DNA of 46,139 nt from Rhizaria sp. SCN 62-66 (taxonomy: Eukaryota), in the NCBI GenBank assembly GCA_001724265.1, contig MEDY01000245.1:1-46139 (forward strand), read 5' to 3'. The stretch's first letter is position 1; every line of letters starts with the position of its first letter. A program made the position numbers and the translations under genes. The notes under the pieces were generated by a model, which did not search any database, was not told where the DNA came from, and saw only the letters and a program-made list of their open reading frames with translations. Shown one piece after another: positions 1 to 43,182 of this stretch.

Positions 1-1264
1 AAGTTCAGCGAGTACAAGTTCCCCACCAAGGAGGAGACCGAGGCCGCGGCCAACGATGCCGACGCCACTGCTAAGCTGCTGCTGTCGCGTCGCCGCTTCG
101 TTAACCTGATGCGTTTTGTCGGCGAGCTCTTCCTGTGCCGCAACGTGCTGGCCTCCAAAGTTGTGCGCATCTGCATCAACACTCTGTTTACGGCCGCCAC
201 GCACGACGTGCCCCAGGTCGGAGAGACCAACTGGCAGCCCGCCGAGGATCAGATGATCATCGAGGACGCCATGGAGGGTCTGTGCTGTTTCCTCACCACC
301 ACGGGCCGCCTCTACACCGAGGTCAAAAACCCCCAGTGGCAGGCTGATTTCAACGCCGTAATTGCTCGTCTTAAGGCCATCGCCACCATCCGTGACACTG
401 ACCGCCTGAGCTCGCGTATCCGCTTCGCCATCGTCGACGTCGTCATGCTCGCGCGCAACAACTGGGTCCCGCGTTCCGGTGCCCATAGCGGTGGCTTCGC
501 TGCGCTGTGCTCCGATGTTTACATCAAGCAGCTTAAGGCCTAGCTTGCCGCAGCTCGTGTTGCCGTGCTCAAGGCCACTCTTGCTGTCGCACTGGCCGCC
601 AAGGCCAATGCATCTGCTGATGTTGAGGCTAAGGCCAAGGCTGCCGAGTCCAGGGCCCACTCCCCCAAGGCAGACGACGACGACGAGGTCTATGAGGACG
701 ACGAGGTCTATGAGGACGACGAGTTCTCTGAGGACGACGAGACCTTCGAGAACCGCATGTCGCGCCACTGCGCAACATGCTGTTGCCGCGGGCGCCACTT
801 CGACCTCAAGGAGTACGACGAGGTCTATGAGGACGACGAGGTCTATGAGGACGACGAGGTCTATGAGGACGACGAGGAGGTCGAAGGGGCTGCGCCCATT
901 CCCTCTGACGACAACGACAAGCCCGTGTCCGAGGACGAGGCTGAGGCTGAGGCCGAGGCGGGTACGGAATTTGGCGCTGCGCCGACGAGTTCACGACCGA
1001 CCTCGAAGACCAGGTGCCTCAGAGGAGATGAAATCCATCTTCAACGAGTACCGCGCTGGCCGTGAGACCAACAAGCTCAAGGCACGCATCGCCAAGCTTG
1101 CGCTCACGGGCGACCGCGACGTGCTCATGTTCACGGCCGTCACGGCGCCTCTCGCGGTCGCGCTCTCCGGCACCAATCTGCAGGAGACAATCGAGGTACT
1201 CATGACTGCTTGGAGCCTGCTTATCGACAATTATTATAACACATTCCGAGTTAATCTAGCTTAA
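1..1264 (+). CDS. eIF4G-type MIF4G-domain protein, 5'-partial; in-frame TAG at 541-543 and a frame change near 960-1015 before an MA3-like tail
   Basis: Frame 1 is open from base 1 (KFSEYKFPTK...SRRRFVNLMRFVGELF...EGLCCFLTTTG...LSSRIRFAIVDVVMLARNNWVPR), matching eIF4G MIF4G motifs. The frame continues past TAG 541 with the same codon bias into acidic repeats. The frame-2 tail EEMKSIFNEY resembles an MA3 start and ends at TAA 1262-1264. A 52-nt GTACGG..CAG intron at 962-1013 would join the two frames (uncertain). Confidence 0.65.
679..879 (+). repeat. 18-bp coding tandem repeat GACGACGAGGTCTATGAG (DDEVYE) in two blocks
   Basis: Units at 679-696 and 697-714 (degenerate copies 715-750), and at 814-831, 832-849, 850-867. 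The blocks flank HCATCCCRGRH. Confidence 0.9.
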
Positions 1265-1591
1265 AGTTTTCAAAAATAATATTTGTTGACTTAAAACCCA
1301 TCATTTGACGCGACATTTATCGAGGATCATGAACGGCTTCTCGTATTTCAAGATATACTTTAAGAAAAAACAAAGTTTTATAATGTCCTGGTCATTTTCC
1401 AGTCTCCTTTTTTCTTTCCCAGGAATGACAACGGTTTAGACTGATGCCCACAGGTTTTTTACATCAAAATATGTATGATTTTGTACGATCACAATATTTA
1501 AGAACAAAAACAGTAGTTTATAATACATAAATTCTAATGTATCTCATATTTACTAATATATCAAAAAAACTTACGATAATGAAGATGTAAA

Positions 1592-4500
1592 TTACGGTTG
1601 ATCGCGCCTCGCCTGCTCCTGACCCCCTTCTTCCAGATTCCTCTTGCGCCCAATCCCCGCACTGCGTCCCGCACCAGTTCTAGTCGAAAAGCCGGCCGCG
1701 GCCAGCGCGCCGCCCGCGCGGGCCCACATCTCCCGCTGTAGCCGGTACACCTCCTTCTCCCAGTCCAGACGCAACAGCGCGAACGCCACCTGTTCGGCGC
1801 TCGGGGCCGCGTCCGCCGCTGACATAGCCGACGCCGCCGACGCGGCAGCGGCGCCCAGCTCGGCCGCCAGCGCCACCGGCGACAGCGGACACGCAGCGGG
1901 AATCGCCACGGGCGCGTGCCACACACCCTCAGCCCCGGCCGCAGCCGCAGCCGCAGTCGGTGAAGTGGAGCTGGTCGACAGGGGCGCGGCGGCGGACGCG
2001 GCGGCAGCAACGGCGTCGGGCACTGCGCAGTTGCTCAAAGCTACGCATGTCGCACCATCAGCACTGCTAGCACTCGTCACGAGCGAAGACTTTGCAACGT
2101 AGGCGTTCACCCAGGCACGCACAGCTGCTGTGACAGCATCCGCGTTGGCGGCATACTTGTCTACGCTCACTCCACCGCCTCTGGCGCTTGGGCCCGCAGC
2201 CCCGGCAGCGGTCACGCCGACAGTCCGGAGACTGTTCGCGAGCAAGGGGTGTCCCCAGCCCCAAGAGGCAGGAAACGCGCGCAGCGCCCGCGCCACCGCG
2301 CCCGCAGTCGCCGGGTAGTTCATCATGTTCTTCTGGCAGAAGCCGCGCAGTGAGAACGCCGCTGCGGCCGCTGCAGCCGTCGCGGCCGGTGTCGGGGCGC
2401 CGGAGCCGGGCGTGGGGGCGCTGAGGGCGGCGAGGAGCACGCGCTGCGCGACCGTCGTGGCGCCGCTGGCTAGTAGCACGCGAGCGACGGCGGTCGCCGT
2501 GGGCGCCGCGAGGGCGAAGCAGAGGCCCGGTTTGCGGGAGCAAGAGCCTGAGCCAGAGCTAGGGTCAGGAGTCTCGCGGTCAGTCACCGAAAACGCCTCA
2601 CCGTCACTCTCATTGTGAGTTGAACAAGCAGGGGCGAACCATTCGCCCTTGACGAGAGCTCCGCTAGCGGCTCTTGCGTTCGTTACACCGGGTCCTGTCG
2701 TAGTCGCATTCGTGGCGGGCGTAGACACAGGCGTGGTGCAGAGACAGGAGCACAACGGCCACCACGGCAGCGGGCGGGGGTAGTACTGTTTGTCGCGCGC
2801 TGCAAACGCCACCGCCAGTGCAGCCGCAGCAGCAACCGAGGCATCCGGTGCACCTACATTCGCACTGTCAGTGGATGCGTTCCAAGGAGCGGACAGAGCA
2901 AGCGCAGCTTCGACTTCCACACGAGCGCTGTCGTTGTTGCTGCTTAGATTCGAGAGCGGGAATGGGATCGCGACAGGCGCCAGCGAGTTTGCCTCGAGCG
3001 CGGCAGCGACAGCGGGGTCAGCTGCCACAGCATTGTGCGCGGTCGCGGTCGGCGCAAGAGCAGCGGCGGCTTCGATGTCGGCGGCGACAGAGGCAGCCCG
3101 CGTCACAGTGTCGGGCTCAGACTTCACCACGCCAGTCGCAGACTGCGGCGTCGTGTTGCCGCTACTGCTGCCGACGGAGCCCGCACCGTTGCTCTTGGGC
3201 GTGACGGTCATGGCGGCGAGAGGAAAGCGGAAGCTGAGCGCCGGGCTGCTCCCCAGCAGCGCGGCCTCCGCCTCGGCCTTGGCCGCGCTCTCGGCCACCG
3301 GTACCGGCAGTAGCGCGCCGGTGCTCGCGCCCGTAACGACGACATCGCCGTCGCTTGTGCTGCAAGACACCGCACTAGCACCCGCACCTGCACCGGCATT
3401 CAGACGCGCGTTCGCGCTGGTGCTGTTCGGGAACGCGCCAGAGCCCGCGCTCGCGGCTGCGCTAACATGGCGATTCGCGGCGAGCGCGGCCGCCGCATGC
3501 CCCGCAGCGACCGCAGTCGCGGTGGCGGCGGACACGGTCGCAGCGAGGTGCCGCGCGATGATCCCCGCGCGCGCCGTCACGGCCTTGACCTCCGACGCCG
3601 ACGTGCCGGTGGCCGCGGCCAGCGCCTCGAGCGAGGCGCTTTCCCAGTCGGTCGTCGTCGCGGTGCGCTCGCGGTCCGCGATGGACTGCGCTTGCATCAC
3701 TAAATGCGACGACGAAGGGAGCAGCACGACGGAGCCACTGACAAAGTTGGAGCCGGCGCTTGCGTGAGGGCTTGGTGCTGATGCGGCAGCAGCTGCCGTA
3801 GCTGCAGTGGAAGCATTGGCGCTATAGATACTGCCATTGCGAGCGGTGTTGCTCGTGTTGTCAGCTGCACAGCTGCTGCTGCTGCTGGTGTTATTCGCAG
3901 TCTTTACAAGCCATGGGCTCTTGGTCGCAGCATCAGACGCAGAGGTCAGGCCGTTTTCCTCGGCATCAGACATCACAGTTGCAGCATTGCTCGTATTCGG
4001 CAAGGGGTTGAGAGCCGCAGCCGCGACGGCGGGGACAGCGACGGCGTCGGGCAGTGCCCCCTGCGGTGCGATCCGCGTGATGAATCCCTGCTCGTCCTTG
4101 ATGACGGCGACAAGGTTGGTGACGAGCCCCTTGCGTTCGCTCACGCGCCGGATCAGAGCCATCAGCGCGGGCCCGTACGTCTCCACCTTGCGGTCGCCGA
4201 CGCCGTCGATCATGCGCAGGTGCGCGGCGTCCACAGGCCGCTTCGCCGCCAGCTCGATCGTCGTCGCGCGCGTGAAGATCATGAAGGGCGCGACGCGCCG
4301 CGCGCGGGCCTCGCTGTCGCGCAGCGCGGTGATCTCGTGCCACAGCTCAGTCTCCGCGGGCGACAGCCTCAGCGCCGCGTCCACCGCTGCGCCGCCCGCC
4401 GCATCGCCGCCCGCGCCGCCGGCGGCGGAGGCCGACGAGAGCTGCAGCATCAGTTTCTTGATGTCTTCGGGCAGCGGCAGCAGCAGCGGCGGCAGCGCGA

Positions 4501-7500
4501 CCGACGCGAAGGGCTTCCGCCCCGCGTACAAGTGCTCCGTGCCGCGCACCGCGCGCCCGTTGGGCACGGGGTCGTCGGTGTCGGTGCCGAGGACGTTGAC
4601 GAACTCGCCAAGCGTCTGCTGGCCCTTGTCCGTCAACGCAGGTGCCGCCCAGGAACGGCTGAATCCGCCGCCGAACCGCCCACCGCCACCGCCACCGGTG
4701 TTGAGGCTGACCGTCTTCTCGACGACGTAGCCGGTTTCGATGAGGCTGGCGAGCACGGCGGCCCAGTAGGCCGTGCCCTGCCCCGTCACGCCCGCAGCGC
4801 GTGCCACGTAGCTGGCGCAGCCGGTGAAGCCGCGCGCCTGCTCGGCGCCGATGACCAGCGAGCGCTTCTTGGACGACGTGCCCCCGCTGTGCGCAACCGC
4901 CTGCGCGGCGTACACCAGCGTCGGGTCGCGCGTCAGCACCAGGTCCATGAGCGTAGACTTGCCGATCCGCTCATTGGTCTTGGCAATAATCGACAGCAGG
5001 CAGTACGCCTCGCGGCACGCGTCCACCGTGGTGTGTGAGGTCACCCCCGCCGTCGCGCCCAGGCAGACGTCGCAGCCGGTGCACTTGACTGTGGTGGCCG
5101 CGGGGTCGTGGAAGTAGCGCATCAGCGTGCGGCGCCGGCACTCGCGCGCGGTCGCTGCCGCGGCCGCGCCAACCGTGGCCGCCGCAGTCACCGTGCCGGT
5201 CCCGAAGCAGTAGTCGGCCATGTGCTTGAGCAGCGTCTCGGCACGGCCCGCACTCTCGGGCGTGCTGCGCGCGGCGTCGAGCGCGATGAGCGACCGCGCC
5301 GTGGTGAGGTCCTTCGTGTCGCACAGCAGCAGACACTCGGCGGGGCCGTTGTCGCGCCCGGCGCGGCCCGTCTGCTGGTAGTATCCTTCCAGCGTAGTAG
5401 GCACGCCGTAGTGCACGATGCGCCGGATGTCGGGCTTGTCGATGCCCATGCCGAAGGCCGAGGTGGCGACGAGCACGTCCAGCCGGTCGTGCAGGAAGTC
5501 CGCGTGCGCCTGCGCGCGGTCGCGGTCGGACCGGCCTGCGTGGTACACGCCCACGCGCAGCTTGCGCGGTGGCGGCAGACTCGTCGGAATCGCGCCAGAC
5601 GGGCGCTGGACGGAGAAGGTGCCGCTCGTCACAGCGCTATTGCCGTTCACGTTGTTGTTAGTCGCATCGACGACGTGCTCCAGGTCGTCACCGACATTAC
5701 AGTTAACATTCGCAGTGTTTGCATTATTCGCAGTATTCGCGTTATTCGCAGTGCTTGCATTATTCGCAGTACTTGCATGAGCGTTGCCGTTCGCGGGCTT
5801 GACAGGGGACGCATTGGCACTGCCAGAGCGGCTGCCAGTGGCAATCAGCGGCAGCGTGCTCTGCCGCACAATCACCGTCGCTGCGCCCGCGCCCGCGGGG
5901 CTGGTGCGCGAAAACGGGTTGTCTTTGAGCGCAAAGCGGGGCGTGATGGCGCTGCCTGGAGCCGCGGCCGTGGCAGTGCGCTTCAGCGCGTAGATGCTCG
6001 GCCGCGGCAGCGTGCTGGAGCCCAGGCCCGGCGCGATGAGCCCGCCGGTGACCGTGCGCGCGACGCCAGAGCCAGCGGTCGTAGTGTTGGCTGTGCCGGC
6101 GTGAGTGGCAGTGTCGCGGGTGGCGGCGTCGTCGTCGTCATCGTCACTGAGGTTGACAGGCACGTCGTCGTTGACGTAACGCAGCGAATAGTCCTCGTCA
6201 CGGTCACGGTCACGGTCAGGCTCTGCGTCGTCATCTTTGCGCTCCAAGTTCTCGCCTGACGTACTACGACCGATCTCAGTTGATTCCTTCTCAGCCTTGA
6301 CAGCCCTATCGTAAATCACACTGCGGTCACCGCTGGTTGCGTCAGATTCACGCGCGTTCGCTTGAATGGTCGCCGCAGCCTCGGCCGCCGCAGCTGCGTT
6401 GGCCGCCGCTGCGCGCGCGCTGGCTGCGGCCACGGCGGCGTACGACGTGAGTCCGCGCTTGACCACCTGCTGCGGTGCGCGCGGCTGCTGCTGGTCCAGC
6501 TGCTGTTGTTGCTGCTGGTACGCCGAGGCGTCGAACGCGGCGCCACAGCCCACAGGCACTGCGCCGACTGTCACGGCGTCAGGCAACGCACTGGCGCTCA
6601 CATTGGAGCTCGAGTTGGCGCTCGAGCTCGTGTTGTTCATCAGAGCGTTGAAGTGCGCTCCCTTCGTCGCGTTCATGAGCTCCGTGACGTACGCCTCGAC
6701 CGACGCGAGGCTAGGCTCGGTCCAGGTGATTTCGCTGAGAAAGCCCGCCAGGTCTTCAGCCTCCTTGCGCGTCTGTGTGTAGATAAGCGTGACGCCTCCA
6801 TCGATCGAGCCGCAGACCCAGGGGTTGCGCCGCGGGAACGCATCCCCGCCGTCGACGCTGTTGGCTGCGGCCACTGCGACGTCGGCGGCGCGCAGCACGA
6901 CGTCGTTGCAAACGTCCACTGAGACAGCGCCGCCATGCTGCCGCTGTTGCTCGAGCTGCTGTTCGCGCCACTGGCGCACGAGGCGAAGCTTGCGCCGAGT
7001 CATCTCGCTGGCGCTGGGTACAAAAAGCGGGCGCAGGTCGCGCGCGCGCGCGGCCGAGGCGCTGCCGGCAACCGCGCTGGGCGTCTTGCGGCGGACGAAA
7101 TACACCAGGTTAGGCCGGTTGACTGTGCCGATGTACCGGGACACGGGCGGGAGCCAGTTGCGGGAAAACGCACGTAAACCAGCCCCGCCATAGTTACCGT
7201 AGCCGCCATAGTTGTCATAGCCAAAGCCGCCCCCGTCGCTGCCAGTGGTCCCAGTGCTGCTGAAGGGCGGTGGCTCTTGCAGCCCCATCTGCGCGATCAC
7301 GTCGTCGACCACGGCGGTCGTGGCCGTGGCGGTTAGGCACACGACTGGCAGGTCCCAGCCCAGCGCCTCGCGCACCTGGCGTAGCTGGCGGAACTCGGGG
7401 CGGAACTCGTGCCCCCACTCGGACACGCAGTGCGCCTCGTCCACAGCCAGTAGCCCCACCACGCCGCGCGCGCGCAGGGAAGCCAGGCCGTCGAGCCAGC

Positions 7501-8243
7501 GCAACGCCTTCTCGGGCGCCATGTACACGAGCGCGAAGTGCCCGCCGCGGTACAGCGCGTCGAGCTCCTCGGCGCGCGTGCTGGGGCCGAGATACAGCGC
7601 GCGCACGCCGCGGGCGCTGAGTCCGGCGACCTGGTCCTGCATGAGAGACACGAGCGGCGAGATGACAACCGTAGTGAGCCCCGTTAGCAGCGGCGGCAGC
7701 TGGTAGCAGAGCGACTTGCCGCTGCCCGTGGCCTGCATCACGAAGCTGTGCCGCGGCAGCGTCACGGGGCCCGTCGCGCGCGGGACCACCGAGACGGAGG
7801 CGAAGTCGCAGCTCACGACCGCGCTCGCGGTCTCGCTGGCGCTGTCAGAGCTGCCGGCCATGTTTGTGAGCGGGAAAAGGAAGGATGACGTGGGTGGCGC
7901 GCCCGCGCTGCCATTGTTTGAGCCGTTGTTGAACGGAAAGGGCATTGCTGCAGTCGGATGCAGTCCTCCTGTATTCACGCTCTCAATATCAGGCAGAGAG
8001 TACGCGAGCACAGCGTTCGTAACGGCGCCGATCTGGAAGGGCTTCAGAGACGCAAAGCCGAAGGTGCTACGGAGCACTGCTTGCAAGCGCGCTGCAACGT
8101 GGGGAGGCAGCTCATGCGCAACAGTGCCAACAGAGACAGAGGTGGATGCAGATGACTGGCGATACAATGACATTAGTCGATCATGCGAGCTGGAAGCGGC
8201 TGGCGCATCATGCTGACCCTGTGTATGTTGTTGGTGCTGCTAC

Positions 8244-8276
<33 letters not shown>

Positions 8277-8629
8277 GACTGCTGCGGCTCCGGCTTGACG
8301 CGGGGCTCAACCGTCGCAGTTGGAGTCGCGGTCGCTGTCATGGGTGGACGCAGGTCGCTGCTCGTCGTTGGACGGAGCTCGCTGTTGTCGGTCGGGCGCG
8401 GCAGCGCTGTTGCTAAGCTTACAGTAGGCACCGCAGAAGACCCTGATGCCGCTGTCGGTGTTGCTGTTGCCGTCGTGGCCCCTCCTCCAACTTGAGTCTG
8501 CGTTTGCTGCTGCAGCGGCTGCAGACCAGGCTCTGACTTGACTACCGGGGCTGTCGCTGCTGCTGCTGCCGCGGCGGCGCTTGCACGGGCAGCAGCAGCA
8601 GACGCCGCAGCCTTCTTGTATATAGACAT
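1592..8629 (-). CDS. RECQ: RecQ-family DNA helicase (WRN/RecQ-like: helicase core, RQC, HRDC); 2345 aa if TAG 8240-8242 is decoded
   Basis: Motifs FGFASLKPFQ, ATGSGKSLCYQLP, VDEAHCVSEWGHEFRP, LTATAT, NRPNL, YHAG, VATSAFGMGIDKPDIR, YYQQTGRAGRD; Zn ligands CRR..CTGCDVC; HRDC (LRDSEARARRVAPFMIF..IDGVGDRKVETYG). ORF 8240..8629 is in frame with 1592..8173 across a single TAG. Ends TAA. Confidence 0.92.
5709..5780 (-). repeat. 18-bp coding tandem repeat x4 (A[S/N]TANN) inside the RecQ insertion
   Basis: TTCGCAGTGTTTGCATTA-like units start at 5709, 5727, 5745 and 5763. Confidence 0.85.
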
Positions 8630-9366
8630 GCAGGCCCGGGTGTGTGCGCGTTCGGGGAGCTAGGAGCGCTGAGTGTGCGAGCGCGAGAGTAAGGCGAGAA
8701 AAGAGAGAAAGGGCTTTGCTCTCCCTGGACAATTGATGTGTCGCATAGAGGAGAATAATCGATGATGTTAGATTGGATAATTTGAGGCAATATACAATAT
8801 TCAAGCTTTGGATTGTATCATGTACCAAAATCAAGAAATAACGATTATATAGCTACAATTTCGTGATTGCCTGATCAAGGACAGAAGCGCGCGGGCTACT
8901 GTGACAGCAAACCGGTTTGTGGTTGTCGGAACTTTAAGAAGCACGTCATCGCCAAATCAAAAGCCAAACTAAGTGTGTAGCTCGAGACACAGGATTTAAA
9001 AATGGGTCATATGTATTGCTGTACATGATCCGTCACTGCGTTCCCCTGCTTCAACTCACTCATTTCAAAACGAAAGAGAAGCGAGGAAGAGTGGCGCAGC
9101 GTCAAGCCAGCAGCTGTACTGCGAGAACTAAGGCAGCGGGAAACCAAGCAGAGCACATGTGAATCAACACTGTGCGTTGAGTTCCACCGTTATCTTAACT
9201 ACAAGCACGCCACTGAGACTCAACAGAGGATACTTTACTAAAATCTTCACCAAGGAGAGAGAAGGGATAAAACTCGGAGTTTACAAAATCAACTCGCATC
9301 ACAACCTCGCACTACACTCACACGTAGCATGCTGTCGTACGAGGACTAGAACAGCGGCCGGTTCGC

Positions 9367-10894: not shown

Positions 10895-13800
10895 TTACAC
10901 CCTGGTGCTTGTAGTTGACATAAGGAGGTCGGCATAAGCACGGTCAACGTCAAACTGCTCTTCAGCACGACCAGGGGACGCCTTGGAGTTGACACTCATA
11001 GCCCCTGTTACATCAGTGTCAGTGGGCTCGATCACGTGATCGACGAGACCGCACTGCTTGCATTGGTACACAGTGCACATCGGAGTTTCAGTCACAGCAG
11101 ATCCGGTGTTACTGGTACCAGTGGACGAAGAGCTTCCACGTTTGCGGGCACAGTCTTTGTCGGTGCAGATAGACTCCGTGACGTTGATATGCGCACAATC
11201 ATTTTGGCTGTACTGGGGCTTGGACTTGGATTTGGATGTCTGTGATTGAGATTGCGGCTGATTGTGGTGTAATAAAGCGTCGTTGCTACTCGTGTTGTTA
11301 CCACTGCTACTGAGATTGCCGCGAGCAGCATAGTTCTCTGCCGTGAGGTTTGCTAAAGCTGCTTCGACCATAGCAACCTCACTCTCCAGTGCAGACCGAG
11401 GCTGACTCTGGCCGGACGCAGAAGTTGAGTGGTCATTGGCAGCAAAGCTCCGATACAACTCTTCGACATCAACATCGCCGTTAAGCTGCTTCGGCTTTGT
11501 GTCCTTATTGTGGAAATCGCTATTCCTTAACAAACCTTTGTTGGTTACTGATGGCTGCGCATTTTGGTTTGACTTCGAGACAGCAACAAACTCGATGTCA
11601 TCGAAGTCACCAGCAAACCGATGCTGTAAAGGTACTTGCTGTGACTGTTCTTGTGCTAGCTGTGGCGAGCTAAACGTGCTTGTGTTAGCAGTGGAAGCAT
11701 TCGTGCGTTCGTGCGCGGGCACCCACACCCTCTCCACATCCGCATCGCTCTCACTCAAACTCGGCTGATGTTGTGTGGTTGCGTTGTTCCGCGAGAAGAG
11801 ACTTCCAAACCATGACTTTGCAGGCGCACGCGCGGTGGTGCCAGTCTGAGCAGACGCTGCACTGACATTGATGTTAGCGACTGGGGAAGCAACAGACGCG
11901 CGCTTTTGTGCCAGCATGGACTGCACGAACGCGAGATCTTCTGCGTCGTCATCTTGAGCATTACCGATACGGTTACTATTGTCACCAGCACTCGGCTTCG
12001 GCCCAACTTGTGATGCCCCAACCTCAGATACAGATTCAGGGTCAGTCGTATACGCAGCACTATTCCTATCAGCAGGGTTGTCACTGTGGTTCAGAGCGCT
12101 CTCAAGCTCAGCCATCGCCTGTTGTTGTGACTGCGCCCGCGCTTGTAGGGCTGCCTCAGCCTCAGCAGCGTTCTCGAAAGCGCTCGGGCCGTAGTTGCCA
12201 CCAGCCACCACGTCATTGTAGTTGGAGCTCTCATAGTTAGCGGCCGCAGTCCGCAGCCACAGTGCAGCTTGTGGCAGCGCAGGCGGGATCAGACCGGGGC
12301 AATGCACGGGCCGCTGCACCACGATAGCGCTCGCGGGCAGTTGGGGCAGCAGCGGATGCGGGCGCTGTTCCAAGTCACAGTCGCCACAGCCGTCATCAAG
12401 CGCGAGCGCTGCGGCCACCGCGGCGTCGTTGTCGGCGACCTCGACCGCGCGACACAGGCCGAGTACCAGAGCGTCCGCAAGCGCGCGCACTGTGCGGTCT
12501 ACGGTGCGGTCGGCGGCGGTATTCGCAGCGGTGCTTGCAGCAGTAGTCGCGCTGGAGCTACCGATGACAGCACTAGATGAACTAGCGCCCATGATTGCTG
12601 AAGTTGGCAGTGTCTTGTTGGCATTGCTGTTAAACGTGTTGTTGTTTACAGGGGCACTGATTGCCATTAAACCACTCGCACCACTAACGACATTGCTCCC
12701 GTTGTTGCTCGCAGTTATAGTCGTCGTGCTGCCTTGAGCTCCGATATCGCGGGTGGTAGCAGCCGAAGCAGCAGCGCTTGCGGCAGCTTTTGCGACAGTC
12801 TGGAATAGGGCACTGACTGGCGCAACCCCAAGCAACACGTCCGCCAACACCTTCGCGTCCTCAGCGTCAACACTGCTCTTTGCGCCAGATCCATTCACCG
12901 AAGCAGAAGAGGCCAGTGCGTTCGTGTTGGCGCTGGCGGCTGCAACGGCCGAGGCCCACTCGAGGTCGCCGGCGGCAGTGCTGTTTCCAGCTGCAGCCGC
13001 GGCGGCAGAGGCGTGGTGCATTAGCGACAGCAGCGGTGCGCGCATTGCGGCACTGCTAGATCCTGCACCAGCTGTGGCGGCGCCAGCGGCCGAAGCTGCG
13101 GCAGCCGCAGCAAGTGTGGCCGCGGCAGCACGCAGAGTCGTGAGCGGGAGAAGCAGCGGAAGCAACGCACTGATGTTAGAAGGCGTAGAGAGCGACGGGG
13201 ACGCGTGCAGCGCTGCAGCAGAGGTGGCGGCGGCCGATGCACGAGCCAAAGCGAACCGTGCAGTAGCTGCCATTGCTGCCGTCGTTGCAGCATTAGCAGA
13301 GACTGCAGTATTAGACAACGATGCCCCTGTTTCTGGGTGTGCATTTGGGCCTGTGACGAGATTGCACGGTGGACGCGTTGGCAGGGGGAGCACGTAAGGG
13401 GATGAAAAGTCTTCTTTGACGCCGTCTAAGAGAGGCGGTGCAGTATCAGCAGCTGTAGATGCAACGGTGACAACCCACGGGGATACAGTCGTATCTGCCT
13501 CCGCATCAAGATCAACTTGAGCATTCTTGTCAGCAGCTACTCCTTGGTCCCCACTCGGCATGAATTGAGAGCACGTGACCGCGGGTACGGTGGCGCGCAG
13601 TGTCGACTGCGCGACAAGCGGGAAGCGGCTAATGAGAGCCCACGCAAGTCGCTCAAGAGGGCTTGCACCGCTGCTACCAGCGCCATCACGGGCGGGTGTC
13701 TGAAGCAGTGGCGTAATCGGAGAGAGCAGAGCGGCACCGCGCGTTGTCGCGATGACAGCAGCCTCCGACACATAGCTGTGATCACGAATGCTGCTGTGCT

Positions 13801-16800
13801 CGTCTTCGTTTTGATTGAATTGATCTTCGTCCTGCCCAATGGTCGTATTGCGCGCCGTGATCAAACGCACATTGTGTGCAGAGTTAGCAGCATTGACACA
13901 GTCGGTGCTTTGCTCCCACGGCGACTGCGTCATCAGCGGATGAGTGGCGACGCCGACCGCGGCGCGCACTGACGTACTCTGCAACAGCGCATCGACTGCA
14001 CGAGCGGACGCCTGCGCTTGAGATGCTGACTGTGCTGAACTTGCCTGTGCATGCAAATACGCGTGTGTGACGCAGTGCGCAGGGGTCGGCAGTGCGCTGT
14101 GAAGTGACACTGTGGTGCGCCTCCTGCTGCCACCATTCGAGCCCGCAATCACGCTCGGAGCAGGACGCTGGGAAGGTCGCGCAAGTGCAGTGGTCGCGGC
14201 GGCAACTGCGGCTGCAGTATAAGGCGCAAGCATCGCGTCAGTACTGTAGGCCTCACGCGCCTGGTGCCACAGCACGACGTCGTGCCTTGGCCGACGTGCG
14301 GTCGTGACCAGTTGCGACAGAGGACGACGGGAGATGAGAATCGACGGCAACTCAGAGGGGGTTGAAGCTGCCTGTGCGCCTGCGGCCACGGTACTGTTGA
14401 GTGCAGTCGTGAGTGGCAAAGAGCGCCAGGGCGGTAGTGACGCCAGGACGGCTGCAGATGGCGAGGACTGCGCAGGTAACGGCTGCCCGGGAATCGGCGG
14501 ATGCGTCACCCAGGAAACTGCGGTGTGAAGGCGCGACAGCTGCTCAGAGAAAAGTCCCTTTTGCCGGTTCAGCAGCTCGGCGCGTTCCCTGTCTTCCGGC
14601 GCGGGCAGCGCCGTCAGAGCGGCGGAGAGCGCGCGGAGGCGCGTGAGCACCGCGGAGAAGCCCGCCAGATCTCCCCACAACGCGGTCTCGAGCAGCGGCA
14701 GGTCAGCATCGAGGTCGATCGTGAGCGCGAGCGAGGTCACAGTGGACAGCGCGGTCGCAACCGGGAGCTCCATGCGCACGCGCACGCCCGCGCCGACGCC
14801 GACCTTGGCGGTGTTTCCGTGGCGAAGTCGCTGCTTCACCAGCGCAGACTCGGCGAGCATTGCAAGACGCTTGCTGTTGCTGCGACGCGCGTACACGGAG
14901 ATGAGCGCGCTCACACTTGTCACCCTCGGAAGATCACTGTCAAAGATGTTCGCAGGAGCCGTCGTCGCAGTATTGTTTGCGTCGTTTGCACAGACATTGT
15001 AGCCGCTGTTCACAGTGGGCGTAGTGAGTGATGGTAGCATCACACCTCCAAACGCAAACTCAGCACCCACAGCAAACGCGTCTTCAAGAGCGCCGGCAGC
15101 AAACAGATGACTCACCGACGGCGACTGCACGTCAACTCCACTATGTGGAGCAAGCGTTGCAGTCGGCACACTGTTGGTCCCATTAGCGGCACTTTTAATT
15201 GACGCTGGTGCAGTATCAACACTTGGATTCGTTGAGAGTTGCTTCGAGATGGCGGCCATACTCGTGATGCCAGCGTCGGTGATCGCCGTAACAGGGAACA
15301 CTGAGGTGGCAGCAGCAAGTGCGTCAGCCTCTGCTTCAACTTCAGCTTCAGCAGCCTCAGCGGCGGTCTCTGCTGCAGCCGCAGCCGCTGCTTCTTCCTC
15401 AGCAGTCCCGGCAAGCGGAAATGGCAACGTCGCGTGTCCTTCCTTGACGTTGATGTGCGAATTAACGGCTGACGTTACAAGCGACGAGCGCGCGAGGCCA
15501 GATACACGCATGAGAACAGACGACGCCAAATGGGCGCGAGTGGCGACTGAGGCGGCCGCCATAGCAGCCACTGTCGCCGCAGCAATCTCAGTGACTCCAT
15601 GCGCTTGAGGGCTTGGAGCCATCTTTGAGTGAGACTGGGGAGTTGCGCTCGTATGAGCTAACGAGCGTGCAAGGTCGACTGCAGACGCCGCCGATGCGGC
15701 GGCCGAGGCCGGCGCAGTTGCGGCAAACGCCAGCAGTAGCGACTGCGTGTAACGGCGACCAGCTACAGCAACGGGGCCCTTCGGCACAGTCTTAGTATCT
15801 GTTGCATCAGCGTCGGAGTTCGTTGTGTTTGCGACCAAGGAGCCAAGGACAACCGCGATGTCCATGCTGACAGTCGCAATCATCGAGTTCGCCGCGACGA
15901 GGTGGTTGGGCTCAGGTGTCTCTGCGGCCGTTAGCTGCGACAGACACGCCGCGGCGGCCGCACGCGCCTGTTGCATCCGCGCCAACGCTCCCGCGAGAGT
16001 GCTAATGTACCGCTTCGCATCTGCAATGGCGGCCAGAGTGTGGCGCGGCGCAGGAACTGCGTTCATCGGCAACAAAAGCGACTGTGACATCAGTTGTAGA
16101 GGAGTGAACGGAGACCATGCCAGCGGACGCGGGTGCGCCGCGCCGCCGACAGCGACGGCATCGACATCGTGACTGCCTGGGATGGTGTTGCACGGCAGCG
16201 CACCCATTGCAGTCGCAGTCGCAACAAAGCGCGCGATAAGAGACAACGGATTCACATCTAATGTTGGTACGAGTGTACTGCGTCCTTCGTCGTACGAGCT
16301 TGCGCTTGCGCTCATCGCGCGTGAGTCCACATTGCCCACGGTCGCGGGCGCCGATGCGGCTTTACTTTGGTACGCCGGGTCGACGACAAGCCCGCGAATG
16401 AGGTCGGGGTGCGGCCCCCACGCCCCGAGCACGGCGCTATGCAGCGGCACTACGGCGTCGCTCCACGCGGCAAGCGCGGCGACACGCACGCCGCGCCGCA
16501 GGAGCAGGTGCATGTTTGCGGCGTGGGCGCGCGCCGCCGAGGTCGAGGGCGCGGTGAGGCGGAACAGCTCCTGCGTGGCCGGGAGACCGTCGGTGAGGGT
16601 GTCGCGGTACGGCCCGTGGTGGGTGCCAGCGAGCGCCAGGAAGGAGAGAGATTGTGTGCACGGGTCCAGCACTCTGTGAAAGTAAGAAACAAGAACATAC
16701 GTTAAAGACTAGTTGCAACTTCTACATTTCAAAAGATAACGATCGAAACATGATAATACACTCCCGCATCTGACGATCAATGATTTGGTTGAGAACGTAC

Positions 16801-24515: not shown

Positions 24516-26135
24516 TCAGATGTCTTGCTCACTGCTGCTTCCATCACTCTCTTCTCGCTGCAGCTGCAGTCGCCATGGCTCGAGCTTCTCTAAGTACCCG
24601 GGGATTTGGGGTTGTTGCATCTGTGCCCGCGGTGGCACGTAGTCCTTAGTATAGTCGCCCAAGATGGCTTCAAGGACACGGAATAGCTACATTGCACTCT
24701 CATTTGTCTCTGCACAGATGCAGTCACTCTCGGATAGTTCCAGAAGAGCGTCACGACCGCCCGCCGCAAAGAACGCTGCGAGGAACACGTTACGTGGCCT
24801 CGTGCCTTGCTCTATCACCTCACGATCTTCGCCTGTGTCGCCTGTCTCAATCATGAGACGCACAACTTGCAGCAGCCGATTTGTCCAATCGTAGTGTGGA
24901 GGCTCTGGCATAGTCGCAGCTGCATAGAGCGTCTGTGCACAGTGCTGCAACACGCCGGCATTGAGAAACATCAGTGCAACGGTCAGCGTGCCGCCGTCTG
25001 CTTTCCTCGCGTGTGCCAGTCCGGTGCGCACCAGGCGGTGCAGAAGTGAAGCCGCCCTCCACTTGCTGGACCAAATGCTGTCGGTGCGCCGCGGGACAGG
25101 TACGCGCGGGATAAACGTTTGCAGGACGTTTGACGAAAAGACACGCTGCACCATCACAACGCTTTTGGTGAGTAAGTTTGATAGTATGACCATGAGCTCT
25201 GCAAACTCGTCCAATGCAGTAAATAGGGGTGAACTAGAAAGTTGTTGCAACTGTGCTAACACAGGCGGTATAAAAACTCTCAATAAAATGTCGTAGTCGT
25301 CAAGCATGGAAAGCTGACCCATGATGCGCAAAACGGGTTCACGAACCTGACTGCCGACGTCAAGTTGCTCGAGCACAAGCGGCAAAATATTGTACTGCTC
25401 GGAAGCGAGGTCTTCAAACTGCACACCATCTCGGTCTTTGTGAAAAATATGCGCCAATAATCCTAAAGTAGATTTAAACGCCCTTTTACAGCCTGGAGTC
25501 ACTGCAAGCCTGCGTAGCGTAAGGGAGAGCAACGGCAGCCACTGCACGGCTACGTTGTACGGCAGTTTAGGACCGCTCTCTCTTGGTTTGACGTTAAGAA
25601 AAGTGAGCACCGTCTGTGCAACGCGGTAGTGTACTCTTTCCGCGATCTTAAAAGAGCAATCACTCGCGACGTAGTGCGTGATGTAGTGACACAAGAGCGG
25701 GATAACGTCATGCACGACAAGAGAGTACGCATCCAATTGGCCAACTGCAACGATGTGGCCACATGTCTCAAGTATGTACTCGATAACATCATCGGGCTAA
25801 CCAAGATAGAACAGATAACAAAGCCTTTCAGCAACTCCGAGCTCTAGTAGTGTTACGCAAGCAGTGCGTGACCTGGAGAGTGCAGAAATGGCATGGAGCG
25901 TTTTCTTCTTGTGCTCCGCGTCTGTAGAATACTCAAGTGACTGCAATAACCAAGCATACACGTTATGCTCAAGACAAATCTCAGTCACTAAAGCCAAGCC
26001 GGTGTCTGGAACTCGCCTCACAACTGTTGCAAGCCTTTCAACTTCGCGTATACTGGTTGGTGATGATGGTGATGCAAGTGACAGCAAGTCCGCTACTGCC
26101 TCATGGAGGTCATTGAGGGCAAATAGTGCCGACAT
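24516..26135 (-). CDS. Armadillo-repeat (importin-alpha-like) protein, 539 aa if two in-frame TAGs (25797-25799, 24687-24689) are decoded
   Basis: ORFs 25797..26135 and 24687..25736 share a frame, joined by ...LFYLG-TAG-PDDVIEYILETCGHIVAVGQL. After the second TAG the frame runs 56 more codons (LFRVLEAILGDY...ESDGSSSEQDI) to TGA 24516-24518. ARM-like helical repeats (VREPVLRIMGQL, FFAAGGRDALLEL). Confidence 0.65.
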
Positions 26136-26929: not shown

Positions 26930-27560
26930 AGCTACCATCACTCTCGTACAGTCTGCAACTCCATTGAGAGCGACAAAGCTCTCAGGAAGCTCTGTTCACA
27001 CATGGACGTCTAAGCCCTGTGTAAAGTCGACGAGAGTGTTACGTATGAATTGATACAGTTGGATAGCCTCATCATACACGTGCTAGATCACGTGATCATT
27101 CCTGAAGAGACGAACTAGCATGTTGCCACCTTGTGCTTTCGTGAACGAAACTCGTTGCTCGGCGCCTTGGCGAGCACAGCAGGATCCGCATTCATATCGC
27201 CAGCTGCAATCATGAGACGCATCGTATTCAGCAAATCGCAAGAGATGAAAGCTAAGGAACCTGTTGGCATGGTTGATGCAACTGTCATAGCCAACGTGGC
27301 CAGGCAGTGCAGTCCCTGAGCCACAGCAGTCCGATCAGTGTCAGTGGCTTCTGTCATCGCGTTGCAAAACAACTGCAACAGAAAAGAAGCCGACTGCCAA
27401 ATCGGGGAGTTCTACAAATACGGATCTCGTGGCACAGGAACACGGGGTCGGAGCGCTTGAAGCACATTTGACTTGAGCACACGGGATACCATTGTGGGAC
27501 GTTGGATCATCAGATCAAGTCACAACAAAAGTTCGCGTGCCCAGAGTGAAGACATACGTC
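26930..27560 (-). pseudogene. Decayed tandem paralog fragment of the neighbouring ARM gene (C-terminal half)
   Basis: Translates MVSRVLKSNVLQALRPRVPVPR..W..AS.L..STMP..LLNTMRLMIAAGD versus MVQRVFSSNVLQTFIPRVPVPR..W..ASLL..ATMP..LLQVVRLMIETGD in the intact gene. 26931-26945 matches 24537-24551 at 14/15 nt (ESDGS). It has in-frame TGA (27520, 27088), TAG (27412, 27115) and a frameshift. Confidence 0.75.
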
Positions 27561-37153: not shown

Positions 37154-38008
37154 TTACGCGTGGTAGGTCTGCACAACATCCTGCGCCTTCTGGAGAGCTT
37201 CAATCATCGCGTCCAGTTCCTTTGCGTTGAGCTCGATCTTGACGTTCCTGACGGCAGCGGCGGCAGAGTCAGCTTCCTCGGCCTGCGCCACGGGCGCAAG
37301 CTGCAGGTTCACCAGCACCGTCGGCTCCTTCAGCGCCGAAAGCTGCTGCGAGGACACGACAAGGCGCACAGACCAGTCGACGTCCTTGAGCGCGTGGGGA
37401 AAGAGGCGCGGCGCGCGCTCGATCAGCGCGGCGCGGACCTCGCAGGAGCGGGCTTGGATCGCGGCGTTAAACGCGGCGGCGTGCGCGGAGAGAGAAGCGG
37501 CCGCAAGTGCAGCGGTAGTCTATAGAAACATAGAAATCATCGATAAATTAGAGGAGTGAGAGCGTTTTGCAAGATTTGGGTGCGGCTTGAGAGTTGTAGC
37601 GAGAGACTAGTGCGAGGAGATACGCAAATAGAAGTTAGTTGGGGTAAATTGGAGAGTGGTGGATATGAGAAGAAAACGTACTTCAGTCTCGCCCCAGCGA
37701 CCGCCAATAATGGCAACAAGAAGGGTCTTAAGTGCAGTAAAGCTGGATGTAGGCACAGAGGTCTGGGTCTCCTCGCGGCCGCAGATGGAGTCGACGGCGA
37801 CGTGGAGCAGCTGCAAAAGGGCGATGGAACGAAAAGATGCGATAATATGAGTTATATATGTTCGTAGAAAGCCATTAACATAAGAAATTGCGAATTAAAT
37901 AAGCATGTGTGCAAGGAAACGCACCTGTGTGATGTCGGAGAGAGCGGCAACGGGCTTGAGCATGGCGACATCAACGACGCCCGTCAGTGGAGACTCCTCA
38001 GTAGACAT
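37154..38008 (-). CDS. COMMD8: COMM-domain protein (COMMD8-like), 192 aa, 3 exons
   Basis: Exons 38008-37925, 37810-37682, 37519-37154. Phase-0 introns GTGCGT..CAG (114 nt) and GTACGT..TAG (162 nt). COMM motif LKDVDWSVRLVVSSQQLSALKEPTVLVNLQL..VKIELNAKELDAMIEAL. Ends TAA. Confidence 0.85.
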
Positions 38009-38403
38009 CCCCTCTAAAGACAGCAAGAAACAAGGAAAGATCGGCTGTGAGCGCGAATTTGAAATTGATTATATGTGAACATACGGCGCGAATATCAATA
38101 AGTGGTGTTTACATTTAGATTGACGTTCAGAACATGGAGAGCTGAGCTGGTTTTGGAATGGGTAGATCGATCGACGCGACCTGGCTGCTGCCACCGATCG
38201 ATCGTGGTGACCGAGGTTCTGAAAAATCGCGACTTTACTGAAGCTAAACCAACAAAACACTGCGTAATTCTGTGATATCGATCATTTCGATACAAATATC
38301 TACTATTTTGTGTATATAAATAGTCTAAGTAACATAAAAACGTATATATAACAGCATATCATAGTGCTATGAAGCAACAGCACTCGAAGTAATTAATGGC
38401 AAC

Positions 38404-41400
38404 TTAAAGCCGTTTCTTCGCAATAGCGTTCTCAATCGTCGTCTTCACGATCATGAGCTTCTCCCCAAGCCTCGCCAATTCTTGCACACTCATTTGCTCC
38501 CACGGCCCCGCCCTCCCGCCGACCGCGGTCGCCACAGACCACGCCGTCGCGGCCGCCAGACAGCTCTCGAGCCTCGCCGCCTCGGCCCTCGTCGCTGCCG
38601 ACACCTCGCCCCTCGTCGCGGCCGACACCTCGCCCCCCGCGGTCCCGCTCGCCGCGCCGCCGCCGCCGGTAAGCCGGTCCCGCAGACGCTTGATCTCCCG
38701 CGTCAGCGCGAGCTCGCGCTCCGCGCCTTCCTGTGTCGCCTCCTCCCAGCCTGCGGCGCGCGCGGCGGCGACTTCGGTCTCGGCGGCGCGGGCGCGAGTC
38801 TCCCAACCGGCGGACCCGGCGGCCATCTGCGCGACCTCGCGCGCCCAACGCTGCCGCACGGCGCGCTCGCGGGCCACGTCGTCGGCGTTAAGCGCGCGGT
38901 ACCGCTCGAGCTCGTACGAAAGCGCGGACCGCAGGGAAAGACATTGGGACAGTGCGGCGAGCGAGTGTGCCGCTGACATCGTTGCCTGCAACGGTGGCGA
39001 CTGGGGTGATTGTGAGTCAGAGTCCGTCTGCAGCTGCAAGGTGTCGTTTGCTGATTGCGATTGGGAGCCAGTGGTATTGCTCTGCGTATTTTCAGTGTGC
39101 AAACTACTCGCGTTGCCACTATTGCTAGAGCTTGCATTGTCTGCTACTGTGTAGTCGTCGTTACGCTCGCTCATTGCTTCCTCGAATAGCTTCACCATGG
39201 CAAGTGTATCGCTGCTACTGAGCGCAGGCCACGTCGCCAGCGCTGGAGGCACAGCTGCAGCGGCGCGCGCAGGGGTGACGCTTAAGACTGACGGCGCCAG
39301 CGACGCACAGAAACGATCAAGCAACGAACTCATCTTGGCGTTATACTGTGCGTCACCAGTAGTGCAATGTTTGCCCAGCAACGAGTGGGTTAACCGGAAA
39401 AGTGCGTTGCCAGTACCGTGGTTTGTTGATGCAGTGTCTTCATCTAATGCGGCCGCAGCAGTCGCGGCAACGGTGGCGGCCCTGGTGAAGGCGGCTCGGA
39501 GCACGAGCGCTGACTCGCGATCACATTCATCGCCGCGTAACGCTGATACAGGCACAGCTTTAGTCAAAACATCATCGCTTTCACTCCCTCCGCTTGAGAT
39601 CTCACTCCTTGACGCTGTGGCAGAGGCGGCCTTGGCACTCGCTGCAGCCTTTGTCGTCGCAGAGACGAATGCAGGCGCGGTGTCGTCGTCGTCGCGGAAT
39701 ACCGCGCGCACTGCGGGGCTCAGCGGCGTCGGCACTGGCAGAGACGTGCTGCTGGTCGGCGTGCGCGGCGCTTTGTGGCTGTTGCCGCTGCTACGGCGGC
39801 GTGGCGGGCTCTTAGACGTCGCGTTGCCACTCTCAGACGCAGGCGCATTTGCGAATGCAGACAGTGGTAGTTGCGTAGATTGCTTGCTGGCAAAGACGTT
39901 GGTGTTGTTGCTAGACGCCAGTACCGCTGGTGTGGTGCTAACGCTGCATGTGTCGTCGTCGGAGTCGCTTGAGGCTAGATTGATCACGTTGGTGATACTC
40001 TCTGTAATGTATCTGCCCGAGTTTGGAGAAACAATCGGCGCTGCCGCTGCGGCTAATGCTGGAGTTGTGGCAGTTGAAAGAATCGGTTCCTGCAGGTAGT
40101 TGTCACCGCTCATGCTTGAGACCGCAGTGGCAATAGCACGCGCACGAGCGGATGCGTCACGAGCTGCCTCCGCGACCGCAGGGTCGTCGATCGCGGACAC
40201 AAAGCTCAAAATGTCGCCGCTGAGTGCTCCACTGGCGTCGGAACGCTTCTTACGCAAAGCTTCTTGAATCCACCGCCCTGACTCCGGGGGCGGCAACAAA
40301 TGTGAATAATCGTTGCTACTGCTCCCATTCGTCGCAGAGCTATTACTCACAGAAGAACTGTCGCCGGGAGCCGTCGACGCCCCAGAGCTCTGCTCACTCG
40401 CAGTGTTCTTGGCGCTCCCGCTGCTGCTGATGTGGATGTTGCTGTTGCTGAGGAGCGCACTCGGCGCCGGCAGCAAGCAGTCTGCGCTGTCATAGCTCGG
40501 GTCGAGCGCGCCGCCCCCGCGCGACACCACGATGGACCCCGCGGCCGCACCCGTCGTCACGCTGACGGGGCCGCCCATGGCGCCGCTGACGTTGTCGTGG
40601 AAACCGTGCGCGTACGCGACGCGCATCGGAGACAGCTGTGTGTGCGCAGCAGCGGAAACCGGCGTGGTGTGAGTGCTGGCGCTCGTGGCGTCATCACCTG
40701 CAGTTGGATCTGAAGAAGAAGCCGTGAATCCATTGGTTAAGTTGTTGTTGCTGGTGTTACTGGCTGCAGGAGCACGGAAGCACCCCGGCGCAAGCGGCCT
40801 CATCTGTGCACGCCCGGTCCGCAACGCCAAGGTGGCGAGAAAGCCGGTGCCCGCTCCAACCCTGGCGCTTGTGATTGGCGCAAACGCATTTGCCGCGTCG
40901 GCATCAGCGGTCGCCGCAGCGATGCCTGGGGGAACAGGCAAGGGCAGCAGATTCGGTGGCGAAATGGCTGTGCTCGCAGCGACGCTACTCGGATTAACTC
41001 CGTCACCAGTAGTTGGGTTCACAGTGCTGGTAAGCAGACTGAGTTTACGCTGATTGATCGCCACAGGAATCTTACTCTCGCGAGTGTTCGCGGGCATTGA
41101 CGTGATTTGACCAACACTTGATGTTGCGCTATTATCGGCAGCAGCTAATGTGGCTTTGGTAGCGGCAGCAGCGGCAGCGGCAGCAGCGGCCGCTGCAGAT
41201 ACATTGTTATTATTGTGGTTGCTGATGTTGTTCGTATTCTTGTTGTTGCTGTTGTTCGCGGTAAACGCAGTCGGCGTTGCGCTCGCGTCGAGGCAATTGC
41301 TCCCGTGCGCTGCGGAAATGCGACTGCTCACGGCCACCAAGTCGCGCGCAGTCGCAACGCCGCCGACTTCTGCGCTGTTCTGAGCGCGGCTAGGCGTCAC

Positions 41401-43182
41401 ATCCTGCGCCGACCGTGCTGTCGGAAGAGCGTTGAAGTTGAGCTTGGTCGCGCTCGAAGGAGTGCGCCCAGTGTAAGACGGCGCGGGCGTCGAGGTGACT
41501 GCAAATGATGGGTCGCCTCTACCAGGATAACTCTGTCTAATAATCATGACACTGTGAGGAGCAGGTCTTTGAATGATGTTGTAAGCTGCAGCAGCGGGGA
41601 TAACTGTAGCTGCAGGTTGTTTACTATGCGATGTTTCTGATGTGGTCTCGGAAGCGTTGTTTGTCGCAGCCACGCGGGGCCGTTTAGCGGTAGCGTCGGC
41701 ATTAGGCGGTGCTTGAGCAGAAGATGCAGAAACAGCTATATTCTTTGTGCTGCTGCTATTCTTGCTATTCAGTGTGTCAGCCGCCGCGCGCTTCAGCCCC
41801 CGATCGTTCGCACTAACTGTGGTCTCAACTCTAGCTGGCGCACTGTGCAGATTTGTGTGTGGATTAACGAAAACAAGTTCGAAGTCGGCGTCACTATCGT
41901 CGTCACTGCTGTCACCGCGCAAGGTATTGGACTGCGTGATTGGAATTTGAGTTGATGTCGACAGATGTGGCTTTGTCGCCGCAGCCTTCGGGGCAGAGCC
42001 GGAAGCGGTAGCAGCAGCAGCGGCAGCAGCGGCTGCGGCCGCCGCGGCAGCGGCTGCAGCAGCGAGCTTGTTTACAGGCGGCGGTCGCTGCGCACATGCA
42101 CTCGCCGCGTTGCATACGGCCACGCCAAACTCGTGTTTACTGCCACCGACCCTAACAGCGTTGCCGCGAACATAAGCGTGTTGAGGTTGCGGCTGCAGAC
42201 CGTACCGTGACGGTGAGTGCTGCAAAAGCGACTCCGGCCTCTGTCGCCGCAGCTGCTGTTGGTGTTGGTGTTGCTGTTGCATAATCGCGCTTTGCCCCGC
42301 CGCCGCGGCCACGGCGAGTGCCAGCTATTCCGCCTCCGCGGTCACGGGGCAGCTCGCGGCCAGCGCACGCAGCACGTGCGCGGTGGTCTCGCTCTCGAAC
42401 GGGGCCGGGGCCGCGGGCCTGGTGCTCGCGACGCGGCTGGGGCTCGCTGCCAGAGCCGCTGTCACAGTGACGGCCGTGTGCGAATGCGATTGCGCCTGCG
42501 GCGGTGAGATTGCCACAGCGGCTGACATAGCGGCAGCGCTAGGTGAAATGACGTGACGAGGAGGCGTGCGGGACGGCGAGGGTGAGCGGCGGCAAAGATT
42601 AGCATTAGTAGAGCTTGTAATCACGGTAGCACTTGTGCTGACACTGCTGAGAGACGCGCTTGGACTCGTGGTGATCGACGCGTAGGAGTTTGTGGAGAGC
42701 GCAAAAGAAGCTTCGTGGGTGTCACAGCGCGTTGACACCCCCGAGATCAACGACGATGGCGACAAGGACGACGACACTGGAGGGGGGCTTGCGAGAGAGG
42801 CTGCAAACGCGGCCCGGTTGGCGGTGGTCTGGAAGTCGCGCGCATTGACGAGAATCGAGGGATTGAGTCCCTGATCTGTCAAAGTCACAAACCTGCGCGC
42901 AGTGTTCGGGTCTGCGTAGCGCGGTGGAGGTGGAAGCAGGCGGGATGGTGTGCCGGGGGCAGAGGAAGCCGAGGCTGGAGCATGGGCAGGAGACAGGGAC
43001 GTGGGCGGGGTGCCTGGGTGTGGCACCGCTGTGTGCGCTGCCATAGGGCTTTGGTGGACAACAGTTGGTGCATGATTTGATGGTATGTTATTAAACCATT
43101 CGTCAAGAAGTGCTATGCCTTTCAGGGCTGATCCTGCAGCGTTCTGACGCTTTGACGAGTTAGAAGGGGGGAAGCGATCCAT
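38404..43182 (-). CDS. Large low-complexity protein with C-terminal coiled coil, 1592 aa if TAG 42325-42327 is decoded; function unknown
   Basis: ORFs 42325..43182 (ATG after an AT-rich spacer) and 38404..42312 are in one frame, separated only by TAG CTG GCA CTC GCC. C-terminal heptads and GPWEQMSVQELARLGEKL. Ends TAA before an AT-rich spacer. Confidence 0.75.
38587..38634 (-). repeat. 24-bp coding tandem duplication (GEVSAATR x2)
   Basis: CCTCGTCGCTGCCGACACCTCGCC followed by CCTCGTCGCGGCCGACACCTCGCC. Confidence 0.85.

Follow-up and report, generated by a model that had tools for sequence, protein, structure and literature searches.

Contig MEDY01000245.1, a eukaryotic metagenome contig with a GC content of about 60%, was analysed over 46,139 nt (46 kb; this whole stretch is called the window below). 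The subject of this report is the codon TAG, which interrupts several genes of the window in frame and ends none of its 11 genes. From the letters themselves, the open frames around them, the alignment columns of Gln type, the usage of stop codons, and the persistence of the TAGs across studies, we infer that UAG is likely translated in this organism, whether or not the following base matters. For the narrower proposal, in which UAG is probably read as Gln, UAA is the chief terminator, and no context rule applies, we consider the case evenly balanced.

In-frame TAG codons and true stops

The five in-frame TAGs are at 541 on the plus strand and at 8240, 24687, 25797, and 42325 on the minus strand. 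As the earlier note on this DNA had reported, the base after the codon (position +4) is C in every case, the next codons being CTT, CAG, CTA, CCC, and CTG, respectively. Around at least four of the TAGs, the frame is otherwise open over a long distance and shows coding signal on either side. An exon-aware count of 12,030 codons gave 5 TAG, 0 TAA, and 0 TGA in frame, and TAG is a rare codon, with 5 occurrences against 324 CAG and 114 CAA. Outside a damaged MIF4G gene copy at the left edge, about 11,600 codons contain no frameshift, TAA, or TGA. The absence of frameshifts when 4 are expected has a Poisson p = 0.018, on the assumption that neutral decay gives frameshifts about as often as nonsense changes.

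The real terminators of the 11 genes are 10 TAA, 1 TGA, and 0 TAG, and in 8 of the 11 the next base is a purine. Since no UAG is found among these stops, full reassignment fits better than an ambiguous stage, although the test is weak because TAA is dominant and the sample is small. TAA ends 10/11 genes despite a GC content at third codon positions (GC3) of 0.72.

The sole apparent TAG stop in the window, at 17800..17802 (minus strand, +4 C), is not a terminator. It is located inside a 106-nt intron (17715-17820, GTACGT...CTCTAG) whose donor is 18 nt upstream, and the continuity of the exon frame of this gene, 10895-21288, was verified across the introns. Two other TAGs on the minus strand also have noncoding assignments. 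The one at 37520..37522 (+4 A) is the 3' splice site of the second intron of a COMM-domain gene, and the one at 8661..8663 (+4 C), in the RecQ frame but upstream of the likely start ATG at 8629, is probably in the noncoding leader.

Introns in the window are few, short (106-162 nt), and AT-rich (GC 0.35-0.42), with the form GTRCGT...YAG; introns and spacers together range in GC from 0.29 to 0.45. Introns were considered as the cause of the five in-frame TAGs and rejected, as there is no well-placed GTRCGT donor, the GC content is exon-like, and the ARM-repeat alignments are free of gaps.

The ARM-repeat gene and its relatives

Two of the TAGs are found in a 539-codon gene of a multi-copy ARM-repeat family on the minus strand (24516..26135); the gene has no frameshift, and its stop is TGA. 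When 1.84 billion representatives were searched with a profile, 17 members of the family were retrieved at E < 1e-30. The alignment has 21 rows, from which the window row and P0010, P0011, and P0023 (duplicates of L002, L004, and the window) were dropped for the column counts. Both TAGs are in gap-free alignment with the relatives. The first, at 25797..25799, is residue 113, and Gln is the commonest residue in its column (6/14 members). The second, at 24687..24689, is residue 483, and Gln is again the commonest (7/13). BLOSUM scoring of the two sites places Q first at 6.45, with E at 3.85. The TAG at 8240 is within a (CAG)n run, and thus all three window sites that could be assessed are of Gln type, yet CAG supplies only 20-45% of the paths that create a TAG. 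On these alignments, Gln would fit the window sites best, and Glu is possible once the sites of the relatives are added. Leu was considered as the amino acid, as in the rhizarian exLh, and rejected: it occurs once among 27 residues aligned in the two columns and scores −4.65, and one site is in a polyGln run.

The relatives L001-L005 are short contigs from a metagenome scan, and L001, L002, and L004 share one assembly. L002 (505 codons) contains 2 in-frame TAGs and L004 (487 codons) contains 3; neither has an internal TAA or TGA or a frameshift, and both end in TGA. The +4 bases of their TAGs are T, T, C, G, and C. L002 and L004 may be paralogs or genes of related organisms. Together, the three ARM genes contain seven TAGs and no other lesion. 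L005, from another metagenome, is a pseudogene of the family, with frameshifts and both TAG and TGA.

In one further family member, the open reading frame (ORF) ends exactly one residue ahead of the second TAG column. Next to the window gene is a decayed paralog fragment (27148..27516, minus strand), which matches the gene with 35% identity across 134 residues; its one in-frame TAG is at 27412 (+4 A). The ARM family is lineage-specific, several of its clusters are recorded only as pieces, and its decay in the window is in tandem (24516-28314).

The other three sites

The RecQ-type helicase gene (1592..8629, minus strand) has DEAD, Helicase_C, RecQ_Zn_bind, and HRDC domains, a likely start at ATG 8629, and a TAA stop. 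Its TAG (8240..8242) is within the (CAG)n run, which encodes polyGln in the N-terminal low-complexity part. The 387 nt upstream of it (8243-8629) have an exon-like GC of 0.65 and an ambiguous codon score. The RecQ core is divided by a low-complexity insertion of about 580 residues between the DEAD lobe (332-481) and the Helicase_C lobe (1062-1132), and VK[SP]EP motifs recur at either end of the protein.

The TAG at 42325..42327 is codon 286 of a 1592-codon low-complexity gene without a Pfam family (38404..43182, minus strand), which ends in TAA. Coding signal is present in the same frame on both sides. The 285 codons ahead of the TAG are open from an ATG and have a coding score in that frame only, and the segment 42328-43182 has an exon-like GC of 0.62, with no AT-rich spacer.

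The TAG at 541..543 is in a MIF4G (eIF4G-like) gene copy (1..1264, plus strand), the 5' end of which is cut by the window edge. It lies in an acidic insertion of about 115 residues, and the coding signal continues past it in the same frame (codon score 0.511, 544-963). An MA3 domain was looked for after the TAG, and there was no Pfam match. The frame changes from f1 to f3 to f2 between about 990 and 1022, and the gene then ends in TAA (1262-1264). Our references for this copy were P0278 and P0280, two 1213-aa proteins that share 99% identity; P0278 is 91% identical to the window copy over the MIF4G domain. By comparison with these relatives, the window copy is without residues 834-970 and the last 95 (1119-1213), whereas the insertion with TAG 541, which includes a copy of an upstream segment, is not in the 1213-aa relative.

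The two frame changes, within about 50 nt in the 960-1030 region, are consistent with two 1-nt losses relative to P0278 and P0280, and true mutation, paralogy, or an error of assembly could each be the cause. As another explanation, a GT..AG intron of 52 nt (964-1015) was tried and rejected, because its GC of 0.62 is unlike the 0.35-0.42 of the real introns and the third frame matches the relative. Comparison with the relatives suggests that the copy is probably decaying or rearranged. The earlier note had placed all five TAGs in intact genes; because of the frame changes and the missing parts, 541 cannot be counted as such a site. The frames around the other four have no lesion besides the TAGs. 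Among these genes, the ARM-repeat gene alone has relatives that can be aligned, and its family includes pseudogenes.

Two features of these MIF4G sequences may be mentioned here. The acidic insertion (516-870) is composed of DDEVYEDDE units and a copy of NRMSR...RGRHFDLKEY (P0278 residues 524-544). P0280 has a mosaic structure: part of the MIF4G domain agrees letter for letter with the window, and the remainder agrees in the same way with P0278, which suggests recombination or gene conversion between copies.

The TAG letters in other studies

Metagenome runs from bioreactors and wastewater, generated by 7 studies between 2015 and 2025, contain the window sequence. A check of contigs across studies covered 24400-42500. 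At 25797 and 42325, contigs of two other studies have the same letters; they differ from the window at 0-1 positions over 1.3-2.5 kb, and neither site has an alternative letter. L001, which comes from a different assembly, also has TAG at 25797, and on 7 contigs the 285-aa ORF up to TAG 42325 is recorded letter for letter. For the bin that contains position 24687, both DNA runs have depth and no letter is listed as different, and cover of the site itself is likely. The TAGs are genuine letters of the DNA. The earlier note had raised a base-calling or deamination bias from CAGC to TAGC, and these contigs exclude the error of a single assembly at 25797 and 42325. Contigs from polyA RNA are on three genes of the stretch, away from every TAG and from the ARM gene.

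In run X4, single-letter differences from the window were seen at 25272, 28319, 30606, and 40727, and the one inside the ARM-repeat gene is synonymous (TTT>TTC). From these differences, X4 contains a slightly different strain, which keeps the TAG at 25797.

The base after TAG

The significance of the five C's at +4 depends on the null that is used. For all sense codons, the frequency of C at +4 is 23.7%, which gives p = 0.0007 for 5/5. This null is wrong if the TAGs descend from CAG, and the context of CAG should therefore be used. After CAG, +4 is C in 144/302 codons (p = 0.025 for 5/5), or in 151/324 (46.6%) by the exon-aware count (p ~0.02). For CAG codons not adjacent to another CAG, the frequency is 76/239 (31.8%), and the four window sites outside the repeat give p = 0.010. 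When L002 and L004 are added to the window, C is found at 7/10 sites (p = 0.14 against the CAG null) and a pyrimidine at 9/10 (p = 0.008-0.044). All of these tests are post hoc, on 5-10 sites, and the p values are uncorrected for the choice of the pattern after looking. The enrichment of C at +4 is suggestive; it is underpowered, not established, and not yet distinguishable from chance.

The earlier note had compared these sites with three TAGs, at 27412, 27115, and 27010, that it assigned to a decayed paralog and that are followed by A, T, and A. The bases are as given, but only 27412 is within the recognisable paralog match (27148-27516), and the frames of 27115 and 27010 are not established. 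In decayed copies the +4 bases are A, G, and T, giving 0/3 C (Fisher p = 0.07), or 0/5 (p = 0.026) if 27115 and 27010 are included.

The idea in that note was that UAG is ambiguous and is tolerated as sense only before a weak termination context. UAG as sense is also our best reading. The restriction to C at +4 is another matter, with p ~0.01-0.02 in the window and with T, T, C, G, and C at the sites of L002 and L004, and context-limited decoding of UAG is neither shown nor excluded by these counts. The CAR-YYA motif of tobacco mosaic virus (TMV) type, as the note gave it, fits none of the five window sites (CTTGCC, CAGCAC, CTATTC, CCCGAT, and CTGGCA).

We suggest instead that TAG would be a rare Gln codon that arises from CAG by C>T. 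A TAG that arises in this way would inherit the strong preference of CAG for C as the next base, and the run of C at +4 may then be mostly a matter of ancestry and small numbers, not a decoding requirement. UAG would be read by a tRNA-Gln(CUA), by virtue of an eRF1 that recognises UAG poorly, or both, and UAA would serve for nearly all termination and UGA for the remainder. Context alone cannot explain genes that need a full-length product, so a decoding tRNA or an altered eRF1 would be required. In mammalian cells, according to Cridge et al. (2018, PMC5829715), C at +4 raises UAG readthrough only within a range of 0.03-0.2%, and at such a level context alone could not rescue these genes. The window itself contains no tRNA gene.

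Alternative explanations

It is doubtful, in our view, that the TAGs are products of nonsense decay under the standard code, but decay is a serious rival, and several observations weigh on that side and against UAG as sense. By this explanation, CAG>TAG changes have occurred in decaying duplicates (the MIF4G copy and members of the ARM family) or in dispensable N-terminal low-complexity parts (of RecQ and the 1592-codon gene), an ATG shortly downstream could rescue the product in the latter, and C at +4 is inherited from the CAG-C bias. The gene with TAG 541 is broken in other ways, with its two frame changes, internal duplication, and missing C-terminus relative to the intact 1213-aa version on another contig. 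The ARM family holds real pseudogenes, both the frameshifted L005 and the fragment adjoining the window gene, and the density of TAG in the three ARM genes (7/1,531 codons) is about 17-fold that in the other window genes (3/~11,500). An in-frame ATG follows 22 codons past the RecQ TAG and 14 past TAG 42325, so that translation could still yield a truncated protein in both cases. TAG is also the commonest nonsense outcome here, accounting for 59-62% of single-step nonsense changes, so that 5/5 TAG has p = 0.07-0.09. The Gln columns alone do not separate recoding from decay, because CAG>TAG nonsense lands there too. Moreover, none of the residues aligned with the five TAGs of L002 and L004 is Gln, and when all 7 sites are pooled, E (10.1) scores above Q (8.0). 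The 0/11 TAG stops are weak evidence as well, since Guttulinopsis vulgaris is TAA-dominant yet uses the standard code, as stated by Panek et al. (2017, PMC5304391).

Decay has difficulty, however, with the ~11,600 codons outside the MIF4G copy that are free of frameshifts, TAA, and TGA, and with three ARM genes that have accumulated seven TAGs and no other kind of lesion. It would not predict that all three assessable window sites are of Gln type when the share of CAG is what it is. The TAGs are fixed in samples of several studies, with a single letter at 25797 and 42325. Fixed nonsense in 4 of 11 genes would be a considerable burden in an organism whose ORFs stay open over 1,600-3,400 codons.

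An ambiguous intermediate, in which a suppressor or near-cognate tRNA-Gln and eRF1 both read UAG and in-frame UAGs survive only before C, or more loosely before a pyrimidine, seems improbable. It would account for the 5/5 C at +4 in the window (p = 0.010-0.025 against the CAG nulls), for the 7/10 C and 9/10 pyrimidine when L002 and L004 are included, for the lack of C after TAG in decayed copies, and for the purine after 8/11 real stops. An influence of +4 persists even with cognate suppressor tRNAs, as described in PMC5829715. Against this are the post hoc nature and small size of the tests, the p = 0.14 for C at 7/10, and the TAG-T, TAG-T, and TAG-G in the open frames of L002 and L004; the frames of 27115 and 27010 also weaken the comparison with decayed copies. 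The explanation needs an eRF1 that acts on UAG, yet no UAG terminator is present among the 11 stops. None of the five sites fits CAR-YYA, and readthrough by context only is below 1% in mammalian cells. A part-way reassignment, in which a tRNA-Gln(CUA) decodes UAG in competition with eRF1, and UAGs persist before a pyrimidine, chiefly C, and are purged from gene ends, is a related proposal that we find quite improbable.

Very little probability attaches to an artefact or to editing, that is, to a CAGC>TAGC base-calling or assembly error or to U-to-C RNA editing that restores CAG. TAGC is common to all five sites, and the two unexplained 1-nt frame changes at ~990-1022 could be assembly errors; the same letters in two other studies at 25797 and 42325, and the TAG of L001 at 25797, speak against such an error. 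We know of no nuclear U-to-C editing of this kind.

Other genes and source of the window

Long low-complexity genes of eukaryotic type are found throughout the window. The products include the RecQ helicase with HRDC, MIF4G, ANTH, a CRT-like transporter, an actin-bundling protein of ABP34 type, and a COMM-domain protein. The COMM-domain gene (37154..38008, minus strand) encodes 192 aa in three exons (38008-37925, 37810-37682, and 37519-37154) and ends in TAA; it sits in an apparent spacer when long ORFs alone are listed. The gene at 10895..21288 (minus strand, ~3386 codons, ending in TAA) also has three exons (21288-17821, 17714-16801, and 16673-10895). Two introns, 17820-17715 and 16800-16674, join what seem to be three separate ORFs into a single gene. 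HG and GHSQG motifs, which are typical of serine hydrolases, occur in its middle exon, for which no Pfam match was found.

The source is an uncultured, GC-rich protist of bioreactors and wastewater. For one window protein, the Atlas neighbours are commonest in Discosea, a weak amoebozoan lead. The best named homolog is from Stygamoeba, with 59% identity, and another relative has 85%. These names point weakly to amoebae, not Fornicata. No relative of the window was found among the genome contigs or viral contigs scanned.

Comparison with known codes and significance

Few eukaryotes outside ciliates are documented to have reassigned only UAG while UAA continues to serve as a stop, namely Iotanema spirale and the rhizarian exLh (Panek et al., PMC5304391). 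In Iotanema, UAG encodes Gln, UAA is the main stop, UGA is a minor one, and UAG never terminates. The window resembles Iotanema in that only UAG is found in frame, at Gln-type positions, and in its 10 TAA, 1 TGA, and 0 TAG stops. It differs in frequency, with 5 in-frame UAGs in 11 genes compared to 204 in 126 genes, and in its GC-rich genome. In exLh, UAG encodes Leu, and the stops comprise 56 UAA and 15 UGA and do not include UAG. UAG alone is reassigned there also, whereas Leu is rejected for the window sites. Condylostoma, Parduczia, and Blastocrithidia, in which several stop codons are involved, tell stop from sense by position at the end of the coding sequence, as that paper describes. 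The window is like them in having a stop codon read as sense within genes and unlike them in that this is UAG only, which is not seen to terminate here.

There is also some likeness to leaky UAG signals, as C is at +4 in 5/5 sites and the next codon starts with CU or CA in 4/5. Leaky signals give minor C-terminally extended isoforms, unlike the protein bodies that are interrupted here. We found no description of UAG reassignment in an amoeba or a wastewater eukaryote in the literature searched, which is no proof that there is none.

If the TAGs are nonsense decay, the finding is an ordinary one. Standard gene callers split the genes of this organism at TAG, and the pieces P0005, P0023, and P0279 are recorded as separate proteins. 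If the part-way reading were true, the window would represent a natural ambiguous-intermediate stage with a visible context filter, possibly in an amoebozoan lineage without a described nuclear code change. If UAG is simply translated, as we propose, and the genome-wide pattern agrees, the window is probably a further case of the Iotanema-type code variant. It would be a GC-rich and environmentally widespread case of UAG-only reassignment, in which the great rarity of UAG would show a reassigned codon that is early or weakly used. In such an organism, an influence of termination context on the placement of new sense UAGs could be tested directly.

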